From a virus (taxonomy: Duplodnaviria > Caudoviricetes), in the IMG/VR virus record IMGVR_UViG_3300010429_001883, positions 32,001 to 96,000 of that record: a DNA stretch of 64,000 nucleotides; one strand, 5' to 3'. Of the stretch, positions 1-4,213 are shown in pieces. The notes below the pieces were generated by a model, which was not told where the DNA came from, ran no database searches, and saw nothing but the letters and a program-made list of their open reading frames with translations. Numbering within the stretch: position 1 is the stretch's first letter; the number at the start of each line of letters is the position of its first letter. A program made the position numbers and the translations under genes.

Positions 1-1
1 A

Positions 2-928
2 AACTCTTTCGGCCCCTGCCGTGAACATGGTGAGGAACTGCCGATCAGTGAAACAGGCACCGCGATGGTCCACGATACCTCCCACGATCAGCAGGCTGAC
101 CGACGGCAGCCAGTCGGTCTTGAAGTTGACCTCGTGGTAAACGATGTCAACACCAGGACCAAGGCGCCAAGAGACACGAGCATTGCCCTTGACAATGCCT
201 CTGCCCTTAAACACAATTCTCACACACTTGAGAATTGTGCCTTCGGGGAGAGGCTGGACTCCCCGAGCGCGCCAATTAGATCCATATAGCAGGCGCATAA
301 TGTACTCGCCTGATACATGAATACACCCGTCATGGGCAGCCTTAAGGCTGGCTTCGAGAACGTCGTCAATTTCGACGCCCTCAGAAGCCGTAACCTCTCG
401 CTGCCCCTCGTCGGTGAGCACCGCGTACCGAAGGCTTTCCGACTGCCAGTCGACAGCCAGAACGCCGCCCAGTAAGGCGCTCATCCGAGCGAAGACGGTG
501 CCCATGATGGCTTTCATGGGCTTGTCTGATGTAGGCATGCCCCACATGGACATGCCCTTGACCACTCCGTCAGCCCAATCGGGGTGGACATAGAACGTCC
601 ACTTGGACTGTCGGATGACGCACCACAGGGTCGTGGGCTTACGGAGCTCACCACGAAGAAGGGTTACCGCCTTCTTTCGCAGCCACGCCTTTCGGGTGCG
701 GACGACAGAAGCATCGACGTCCCAAGACTCAATTCTGAGCTTGGAAGCATCGAGCTTCTTTGATTCGAGGAAGCCCAAGAGGACGGCAAATCGGCCCGTC
801 TCCTGGGATTCCTCACGCTCAACGTTGAGGTACCGGCCTTCCTCAACCGAAACAGTCACTTTCGTTTTAGGAAAGCGGCTGTTGTTGAGGAGTGTCCCCA
901 ACTTTCGCATGGCTTTCAGTACAGCCAT
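2..928 (-). CDS. N-terminal ~309 aa of a putative YonO/QDE-1-like single-subunit two-barrel RNA polymerase (runs off window edge)
   Basis: Translated by hand because it is absent from the ORF track (no stop in window). ATG at 928-926 with RBS AAGGAGGAG; frame open to base 2. Motifs in order: FARMS, HDGCIHVS, R..KGRGIVKG, DIVYHEVNFK, TDRQFL, matching the AR / DG..IS / R..KG / I...K / NRQ order of the RdRP/YonO family. Confidence 0.65.
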   Translation of the reverse strand, partial: MAVLKAMRKLGTLLNNSRFPKTKVTVSVEEGRYLNVEREESQETGRFAVLLGFLESKKLDASKLRIESWDVDASVVRTRKAWLRKKAVTLLRGELRKPTTLWCVIRQSKWTFYVHPDWADGVVKGMSMWGMPTSDKPMKAIMGTVFARMSALLGGVLAVDWQSESLRYAVLTDEGQREVTASEGVEIDDVLEASLKAAHDGCIHVSGEYIMRLLYGSNWRARGVQPLPEGTILKCVRIVFKGRGIVKGNARVSWRLGPGVDIVYHEVNFKTDWLPSVSLLIVGGIVDHRGACFTDRQFLTMFTAGAERV

Positions 929-938
929 GGCTCCTCCT

Positions 939-1280
939 TTATTCCCAAGGAGGGAGATCGGTGGCCGGACATTCGGTGTCCGGCTCTCGCCCTCCAGAAG
1001 GAATCGGCTCTGTGGGGATTAGCCACGACTTGGCCGCAGCCAAGGAGCTAAATCCCCGGAAATTGGCACCCGACAGGTTCTGAGTGAACCCGTAGGCGCC
1101 TTTCTGGCCATACCATCCCTCGATGATAAGGCCTTCCGGGTACAAGAAGACGGACTTGCCGATGTCCGCCTTCGTGTAGCGGGATTTGATCCGCTCTCGG
1201 ATCTCCTCCCGGTTCTTTTCGGAGATCTTAATGGAGAAGAAGCGGAAACGCTCCTTCACCTTATAATAAGGTGCTGCCAT
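939..1280 (-). CDS. Protein with RNase H1 N-terminal hybrid-binding (Cauli_VI/viroplasmin-like) domain
   Basis: GGAGG RBS. C-terminal half GLIIEGW..AYGFTQNLSGANFRGFSSLAAAKSWL resembles the GIY..W......GYSGA.YK.F.....A..FL pattern. Confidence 0.55.
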   Translation of the reverse strand: MAAPYYKVKERFRFFSIKISEKNREEIRERIKSRYTKADIGKSVFLYPEGLIIEGWYGQKGAYGFTQNLSGANFRGFSSLAAAKSWLIPTEPIPSGGREPDTECPATDLPPWE

Positions 1281-3358: not shown

Positions 3359-3415
3359 GAGCACCTCCTCTTTTTGCGTTTAAGCTACCTTAAGGTAGCG
3401 GGCACGTCGTAGCCC
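3359..3415 (-). promoter_or_regulatory. Structured 5' leader, copy 2
   Basis: Repeat of 2421-2482; stem 2 is GCTACC/GGTAGC (compensatory change). Confidence 0.7.
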
Positions 3416-4030
3416 TTTAAACCACATTAAAGCACATTAACATTACTGCTAATGTACTTTAAAATGGGGAGGGGACTACCTACCCATAGCCCATGGTATG
3501 TACCTTGTGGTACTCATGGAGCTAGGACTATGGCATAGGCAGTCCCCTCTAGTGGAGGGAGATACCAACCCACTAGCTGTCACCTAGTGAGTTGATATGG
3601 ATTTATGCTACTACTTGCACCGTAGCATCTGGTGCGTGTCAGTAGCCAGGGACTACACACTAGTGACCACTATTTGTGGTATAGTGCGCTGTTGGGCAAC
3701 TCGGGTATAAGGCAATATGCCTACCCTTGGCCCATCCTGGGTAACCAACACATGTATTGTCGTACTAGCACACTGGTATGCTAGAGTACCTGGTATTCTC
3801 CTTCAAAGGAGATAACAGAATAGGTACTTTACGGTATGTCCACCATCTTATGGACATAGCCCTACTGTTTGATGTAGGACATCATCTGTGTGGGAATAAG
3901 CCACACTCTTCTCTCGCTTTTCTAGATAAAGCAAGGCAAACTGTTGATGGGGTGATTGCCAATGGAGATGGCCCATCAACCGACGGGGTGGCATTGAAAC
4001 GAATTGCTTCGTCACAACACCACTACTAGG
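3416..4030 (-). ncRNA. Putative ~600-nt highly structured non-coding RNA or leader
   Basis: More than ten inverted repeats back to back; stem mismatches become G-U pairs on the minus strand; no credible ORF. Confidence 0.6.
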
Positions 4031-4213
4031 TAACCTCTAAAAAATATAAGTCCTTTTTTCCCTATATAAGGCTTTTTCCTTTTTTTCTAATTTCCTTTTT
4101 TCCTTTTAACCTTACACCTTCCTTAAAATAATTTTAAGTATTGTGATTTTTCTTGTTTATTTCTAGGTAAAGTTAGTGTATAATAGAGATAAGTCTAAAG
4201 AAGGAGAAAGCAG

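Follow-up and report, generated by a model that had tools for sequence, protein, structure and literature searches.

A divergent YonO/QDE-1-type single-chain RNA polymerase with a contracted DxDD loop, predicted from a tailed-phage genome

The window analysed here is a 64,000-nucleotide stretch of tailed-phage DNA (Duplodnaviria; Caudoviricetes), corresponding to C1:32001-96000 of a linear, 148,472-bp IMG/VR viral record (IMGVR_UViG_3300010429_001883) that is estimated to be 78% complete. At its left edge lies P0001, a minus-strand gene whose product is predicted to be a divergent single-chain RNA polymerase of the YonO/QDE-1 type. The gene starts with an ATG at window 928-926 and its frame remains open to base 2, which amounts to 309 in-window codons; leftward in the parent record the frame runs for 808 further codons, giving a total of 1117. 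A first-pass annotation, made from the letters of the window, had recognised the frame between this ATG and the edge and called for its extension to the left; the start codon, the ribosome-binding site (RBS) and the open frame are all borne out, and no early stop follows past the edge. Full-length homologues exist, so the open reading frame (ORF) is no mere by-product of GC richness.

C1:29575-32928 (L002:15575-18928), minus strand: whole P0001 ORF, 1117 amino acids (aa)
Window 1..928, minus strand: in-window part of P0001, residues 1-309
Window 931-939, minus strand: RBS AAGGAGGAG, two bases before the P0001 ATG and overlapping the TAA stop of the upstream ORF
C1:29556-29576 (L002:15556-15576): terminator-like hairpin AGGAGGGGTGTTACCCCTCCT + TTTTATTT, overlapping the P0001 TAG stop

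P0001 closes a leftward run of genes that sets out from a divergent intergenic region near window 3400-4200 and passes through five or six small ORFs without assigned function. The terminator-like hairpin is strong, with a 9-bp G+C-rich stem and a T run, and its overlap with the P0001 stop fits the proposal that the gene stands at the end of an early operon.

The P0001 family is real, phage-sized and very rare. A word-indexed search of 5.8 billion proteins returned two relatives with 87% and 78% identity, and an exhaustive HMMER profile search of 1.84 billion cluster representatives returned 13 proteins, ten of which are ~1000-1730 aa long and share 16-31% identity with P0001. The 13 family clusters hold 1-8 members each, all of them unnamed metagenomic proteins, and some lie on 111- and 200-kb contigs. 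No match was obtained by tblastn of P0001 against 50,697 phage records, and scans for the family, run on IMG/VR with two alignments of the family and with two individual members, and on GTDB genomes, found nothing; a metagenome scan recovered a single 1.5-kb activated-sludge fragment with 75% DNA identity and 56% GC. The C-terminal residues 1075-1117 of P0001 (C1:29575-29706) form a strongly acidic tail (…EDYEEGTDLSEYVLDDGPDPDLVLSQDQADSYYVEE); a tail is present in the closest relatives and absent from distant ones. One relative, P0004 (1731 aa), joins the polymerase-like core to a C-terminal NUDIX domain (1149-1199) and a PIF1/RecD-like superfamily 1 (SF1) helicase (1276-1505), a fusion that hints at coupled RNA 5′-end processing or template unwinding.

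Conservation was counted in an alignment (A2) of the 13 family sequences and is concentrated in a series of short motifs, five of them in the window and the remainder beyond its edge.

Window 479-493, minus strand: FARMS, residues 146-150; R148 nearly invariant in the family
Window 311-334, minus strand: HDGCIHVS, residues 199-206; D200 and G201 in 12/13 members
Window 185-220, minus strand: RIVFKGRGIVKG, residues 237-248; R237, K247 and G248 invariant, basic residues of the beta-like barrel
Window 119-148, minus strand: DIVYHEVNFK, residues 261-270; first-barrel strand region
Window 32-49, minus strand: TDRQFL, residues 294-299; Q297 invariant, D295 in at least 90% of members
C1:31684-31689, minus strand: P414-D415
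C1:31570-31581, minus strand: RSPH, residues 450-453; counterpart of YonO R492/P494 and Rpb1 R446/P448
C1:31420-31443, minus strand: GGADLDDE, residues 496-503; proposed metal-binding loop, with DxDD in place of DxDGD
C1:31222-31227, minus strand: I568-G569, opening a 27-residue helix that may be the equivalent of the bridge helix
C1:30772-30807, minus strand: EEYIDMGNGKHK, residues 708-719; E708, I711, D712, N715 and K717 invariant

Sixteen positions are invariant in A2 (R237, K247, G248, Q297, D415, G497, D499, D501, D502, G569, E708, I711, D712, N715, K717 and G926), and D200, G201, D295, P414, R450 and P452 are kept in at least 90% of the 13 members; the sole member without D200 is the N-terminally truncated P0015. 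The five in-window motifs (FARMS, HDGCIHVS, R-x5-GIVKG, DIVYHEVNFK and TDRQFL) occur in the order given by the first-pass annotation and at most a few bases from the positions it listed, and five collinear motifs are far beyond chance. Their equation with the motifs of YonO and QDE-1 holds for the most part: HDGC, KG, DIVYHEVNFK and TDRQF pair with TDGC, KG, DVYGKEWDII and FTKSQF of YonO, whereas the assignment of FARMS to the 'AR' motif is doubtful and that of TDRQ to NRQ does not stand. FARMS may not correspond to the 'AR' motif of RNA-dependent RNA polymerases (RdRPs), because hhalign pairs SAGQIR of YonO with VIRQ (residues 104-107). TDRQ was likewise dropped as the equivalent of NRQP/NRAP, for which RSPH at residues 450-453 is the better counterpart in the hhalign pairing. 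D200-G201 of HDGCIHVS is the proposed counterpart of YonO D249-G250, QDE-1 D709 and Rpb2 D837.

All 13 members carry GG-x-D-x-D-D at the position of the catalytic loop, and from the alignments DxDD reads as a one-residue contraction of the canonical DxDGD loop. Eight residues have been described as common to all two-barrel polymerases, and seven of the eight are conserved in the family; they are the three aspartates of DFDGD, Rpb1 R446/P448, Rpb2 K979/K987, and Rpb2 D837, which equals QDE-1 D709 (PMC2919709). The family appears to hold conserved counterparts to this entire set in D499/D501/D502, R450/P452, R237/K247 and D200, with the third aspartate one position early. The nearly invariant R450-S-P452-H lies 46 residues before D499 and pairs with RSPH of YonO, and the spacing from D200 to D499 is 299 residues, compared with 298 from D709 to D1007 in QDE-1.

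The link to YonO was followed by profile comparison, using the YonO sequence from the SPbeta record and an alignment of 18 YonO sequences. With hhalign the family alignment matches the YonO alignment over 177 columns at an E-value (E) of 9.8e-5, compared with E 0.65 for a reversed YonO alignment as control. The match pairs PD with PD, RSPH with RSPH, IG with IG, and D499/D501/D502 with YonO D535/D537/D539, leaving a gap opposite G538; at a permissive threshold it also takes in the N-terminal motifs HDGC/TDGC, DIVYHEVNFK/DVYGKEWDII and FTDRQF/FTKSQF. When the sequences were pooled in MAFFT, R237, D415, D499, D501, D502, G569 and K717 fell into invariant columns in common with YonO. ESM features of residues 90-760 point in the same direction, with 24 of the 30 nearest clusters carrying the RdRP domain PF05183.

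AlphaFold2 modelled residues 90-760, from an alignment of 13 family rows and eight YonO-family rows, with a predicted local distance difference test score (pLDDT) of 80.4 and a predicted template modelling score (pTM) of 0.79. Foldseek searches of the PDB with this model returned QDE-1 (E 2.9e-12), RDR2 (4e-8), P32 gp64 (1e-5) and crAss gp66 (5.8e-4), with P74 gp62 among the further matches and the largest subunits of cellular polymerases after crAss gp66. A comparison independent of Foldseek, by VIA-align against 48,161 PDB representatives, gave maize RDR2 at Z 17.0 (399 residues, root-mean-square deviation 3.8) and QDE-1 at Z 16.1 (468 residues), followed by P74 gp62 (Z 12.5) and P23-45 gp96 (Z 10.4), while cellular and giant-virus polymerases scored ~7-8 and isolated double-psi beta-barrel domains ~6.9 on model residues 312-431. 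The best matches in BFVD are phage proteins named 'RNA dependent RNA polymerase', P23-45 gp64 and crAss-like polymerases. The first-pass annotation would have been contradicted by a structure lacking the double-psi beta-barrel; instead, the predicted structure aligns with RDR2 and QDE-1 over both barrels. Together with the hhalign match to YonO and the motif pairing, the predicted fold supports the proposal of a divergent YonO/QDE-1-type single-subunit RNA polymerase.

The genomic setting of P0001 is not that of a virion polymerase gene: P0001 lies in an operon of small genes, a block with DNA-metabolism genes follows, and the giant tail-block genes (C1:102971-120845) are ~70 kb away. The gene immediately upstream is tightly coupled to P0001, and the pair is conserved in the activated-sludge contig, where the counterpart of the upstream ORF (L005:16-348) is 66% identical and equally coupled. 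A likeness of the 113-aa upstream protein to an RNase H1-type hybrid-binding domain (GANFRGF...AAAxxWL) found no support in Pfam and PDB profile searches. P0001 and its neighbours belong to an 11.8-kb GC-rich block (C1 ~23.9-35.7 kb, in the window up to ~3700) with 52-71% GC, compared with ~36% for the genome, and with fairly sharp edges; the P0001 gene itself has 57% GC and a third-codon-position GC (GC3) of 0.71, compared with 0.30 in a late gene. Either the block was acquired recently or it is an early region kept deliberately different.

Window 939..1280, minus strand: ORF of 113 aa that stops 10 nt before the P0001 ATG
L002:298-3738 (C1:14298-17738), minus strand: P0137, 1146 aa, second large polymerase-like gene
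Window 5192, 23633, 39604, 47733, 57109, 58617, 61413 and 63801, plus strand: copies of TATACTAT

Downstream of P0001, a 14-base motif, TTCTCTTTT[CT][AT]TG[AG], occurs in ten copies on the minus strand between C1:17857 and C1:28750 (L002:3837-14754) and nowhere else in the record, that is, only between the P0001 and P0137 genes. Most copies directly follow a G+C-rich hairpin and lie 20-120 nt before a gene start, so that hairpin and TTCTCTTTTYWTGR together form a candidate terminator-promoter cassette; P0137 begins 119 bp after the last copy. Among the cassettes are genes for a SNF2-family helicase with an N-terminal DUF5710 (phrog_62, E 7e-110; L002:10162-12297, minus strand) and a DprA/SLOG-like protein (phrog_768, E 3e-53; L002:12942-13445, minus strand). 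P0137 combines the motifs SSVKG and RNPN with a canonical GDFDGD, and RdRP is carried by 24 of the 30 clusters nearest to it in ESM features. P0137 was considered as a paralogue of P0001 and rejected, since neither BLASTP nor hhalign finds it similar to P0001 or YonO and only its ESM features and motifs are RdRP-like. One phage may thus encode two very different single-chain two-barrel polymerases. The giant tail-gene trio includes a cysteine-free tail protein of 1649 aa (L006:13987-18936, plus strand; C1:109987-114936) with DRDKD at residue 1153 and no match in PHROGs.

A further element of the first-pass annotation found no support, namely that the enzyme may read the TATACTAT promoters. The whole record contains eight copies of TATACTAT, compared with 3.75 expected, all on the plus strand among rightward genes 4-63 kb from P0001, and nothing links these sites to P0001. 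Five copies are intergenic and lie 15-35 nt before rightward genes. One of the eight shows TTGCTT-17-TATACT, and TATACTAT probably serves the rightward gene block as a -10-type promoter element. TATACTAT was dropped as a P0001 promoter, and the TTCTCTTTTYWTGR motif is the better, still putative candidate.

Taken together, P0001 is very probably a phage single-chain two-barrel RNA polymerase in the clade of YonO, QDE-1/RDR2 and the crAss-like and Thermus-phage polymerases. This reading is carried by the predicted fold, the profile similarity to YonO, the conservation of the catalytic residue set and the position of the gene as the last of an operon closed by a hairpin. By homology, D200 and the basic pair R237/K247 would come from the beta-like barrel (~200-290), and R450/P452 with D499, D501 and D502 from the beta-prime-like barrel (~405-510), the two being joined by a helical connector. 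The corresponding aspartates of canonical DxDGD enzymes bind the catalytic Mg2+, and the contracted DxDD loop would stand in the same place. We infer that P0001 is most likely active, DNA-dependent, made early and not packaged, in other words a non-virion transcriptase that would take over a later class of phage genes.

A number of observations weigh against this assignment. The first-pass annotation had looked to a DxDGD in the same frame beyond the edge, where the homologous loop is found to read GGADLDDE; there is no DxDGD anywhere in P0001 or its relatives, and none of the 13 members has a conserved DxDxD, which has been described as the signature of the two-barrel superfamily (PMC7824862; PMC10770324). 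Because the canonical spacing is not kept, P0001 is classed as a variant within the YonO/RdRP-like clade and not as a regular member. By sequence, P0001 has no match in Pfam (even at E 10), PHROGs or PDB chains, nor do the family profiles, and PF05183 appears in one relative at E 0.048, below the cut-off, and not at all in P0001 itself. The hhalign match to YonO carries a low probability of 58%. The YonO rows in the model alignment may have steered AlphaFold towards the QDE-1 fold, and a full-length AlphaFold model built with three close homologues only reached pLDDT 30. As for the targets, nothing was found that assigns the cassettes to P0001 in preference to P0137 or the polymerase of the host.

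It is unlikely, though conceivable, that the polymerase fold of P0001 acts on single-stranded DNA (ssDNA) or RNA in replication, recombination or conflict, as a primase-like or QDE-1-like enzyme that would synthesise RNA on ssDNA provided by helicases, and not as a promoter-specific transcriptase. The nearest structural matches of the model are polymerases of RNA interference (RNAi) and not phage transcriptases, and QDE-1 is a robust transcriber of ssDNA that depends on RPA and the QDE-3 helicase (10.1101/2020.03.07.982082); a SNF2-family helicase and a DprA-like ssDNA mediator are encoded 2-5 kb downstream in the same gene block, and P0004 fuses the same core to NUDIX and helicase domains. 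However, the helicase fusion occurs in one of the 13 members only, the characterised phage enzymes of the clade are DNA-dependent transcriptases, and P0001 closes an early-looking operon that is followed by a promoter-like repeated motif. A catalytically dead homologue, serving as a scaffold or nucleic-acid binder while transcription is left to other polymerase-like proteins of the phage or to the host, would fit the missing DxDxD in all family members, the canonical GDFDGD of P0137 in the same phage and the DRDKD string in the 1649-aa tail protein. This reading is very unlikely, because the three aspartates, the RxP pair, the basic pair, D200, G497, G569 and K717 are conserved at 16-31% identity in the pattern of an active site and not of a relic; moreover, hhalign matches the three aspartates one-to-one with those of YonO, and active enzymes are already seen to differ at motif position 4, as in the DFDID of crAss gp66.

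The base composition raises another possibility, that the GC-rich segment is an assembly chimera or a foreign insertion unrelated to the phage, as the high GC and GC3 of the P0001 gene and the fairly sharp edges of the block might suggest. The TTCTCTTTTYWTGR motif argues against a chimera, because it occurs both inside the block (C1:26581-28750) and in the lower-GC left flank (C1:17857-23093), and nowhere else, which links the block with its flank. The genes keep their orientation over both edges, and the same gene pair recurs in the independent activated-sludge contig at a similarly high GC; a chimera or unrelated insertion is therefore extremely unlikely.

If P0001 is a transcriptase of a later gene class, the likeliest targets would be the ten cassettes of hairpin and TTCTCTTTTYWTGR that lie downstream and lead to P0137, although this assignment is doubtful. 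A bolder scheme is more tentative still and rather improbable as a whole: DxDD enzymes would be active with their contracted loop, and P0001 would stand in the middle of a cascade that runs without the host through three unrelated-looking two-barrel polymerases. A tail-delivered enzyme would transcribe the early operon, and P0001 would then read the cassettes, which end at the gene of the canonical DFDGD enzyme P0137. Were DxDD enzymes active, the DxDxD signature would not be obligatory for two-barrel polymerases, and the family would represent a new deep branch beside YonO and the forerunners of the RNAi polymerases of eukaryotes.

The replacement of the near-universal DxDxD by DxDD has a practical consequence, because motif-based surveys would miss the P0001 family. 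A 2024 survey of viral two-barrel polymerases filtered its candidates by [RK]xPx{20,100}DxDxD (PMC10770324, Supplementary Data 4); none of the 13 family members passes this filter, YonO and P0137 do, and no DxDD string occurs in those supplementary files of PMC10770324 that were available. That all members fail the filter and yet keep the rest of the active-site set points to an undercount of phage polymerases in motif-based censuses. For the reshaping of the Mg-binding loop the family amounts to a natural experiment, and the phage may run its own transcription programme with several self-encoded polymerases.

Among known systems, YonO of SPbeta (PMC5467207) is the closest point of reference and the only family that can be reached from the P0001 family by profile comparison. 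Like P0001, it is a single chain of ~840-1100 aa encoded by a tailed phage, and the two share the motif order DG, KG, FTxxQF, PD, RSPH, aspartate triad, IG and IDxxK, at ~20% identity in the joint MAFFT alignment and 21% over the 177 hhalign columns. The differences are equally clear: YonO, with DNDGD, passes the [RK]xP...DxDxD filter, whereas the P0001 family, with DxDD, fails it; P0001 has five extra residues between the arginine and the KG of the first barrel, and a C-terminal half that is ~350 residues longer and unrelated in sequence; and P0001, unlike the YonO family, is without a PF05183 signal. The best structural matches to the P0001 model are instead QDE-1 and RDR2 (PDB 2j7n, 7y7p, 7w84), which align at Z 16-17 over 400-470 residues comprising both barrels and the connector, with 12-14% identity. 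These are eukaryotic enzymes of RNA silencing, of which QDE-1 is dimeric and has DYDGD, whereas P0001 comes from a phage operon.

Phage phi14:2, a crAss-like phage, encodes gp66 (PDB 6vr4), which has the same two-barrel, QDE-1-like architecture as the P0001 model (Z 6.6, in addition to the Foldseek match). Its DFDID shows that motif position 4 can vary, but gp66 keeps the DxDxD spacing, unlike P0001; it is also a virion-packaged protein of 2180 aa encoded among structural genes, which the P0001 gene is not. The Thermus-phage polymerases, namely the non-virion enzyme P23-45 gp64/P74-26 gp62 and the virion enzyme gp96, which is fused to a tape measure (PMC10770324; PDB 8f72, 8f5m, 8h2n), are, like the P0001 model, phage single-chain enzymes with two barrels; they are smaller (~600 aa), carry DxDxD, lie structurally further from P0001 than the RdRPs and show no detectable sequence similarity to it. 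In P23-45 the virion polymerase transcribes the pre-early genes, including the gene of the non-virion polymerase (PMC10770324), and this arrangement of a virion and a non-virion enzyme is a possible functional parallel to the phage described here, in which the tail protein is known only by its DRDKD motif. YonO, gp66, gp64 and gp96, the characterised phage members of the clade, are all DNA-dependent transcriptases, with YonO transcribing the SPbeta late genes and gp64 the early and middle genes of P23-45 (PMC5467207; PMC10770324).

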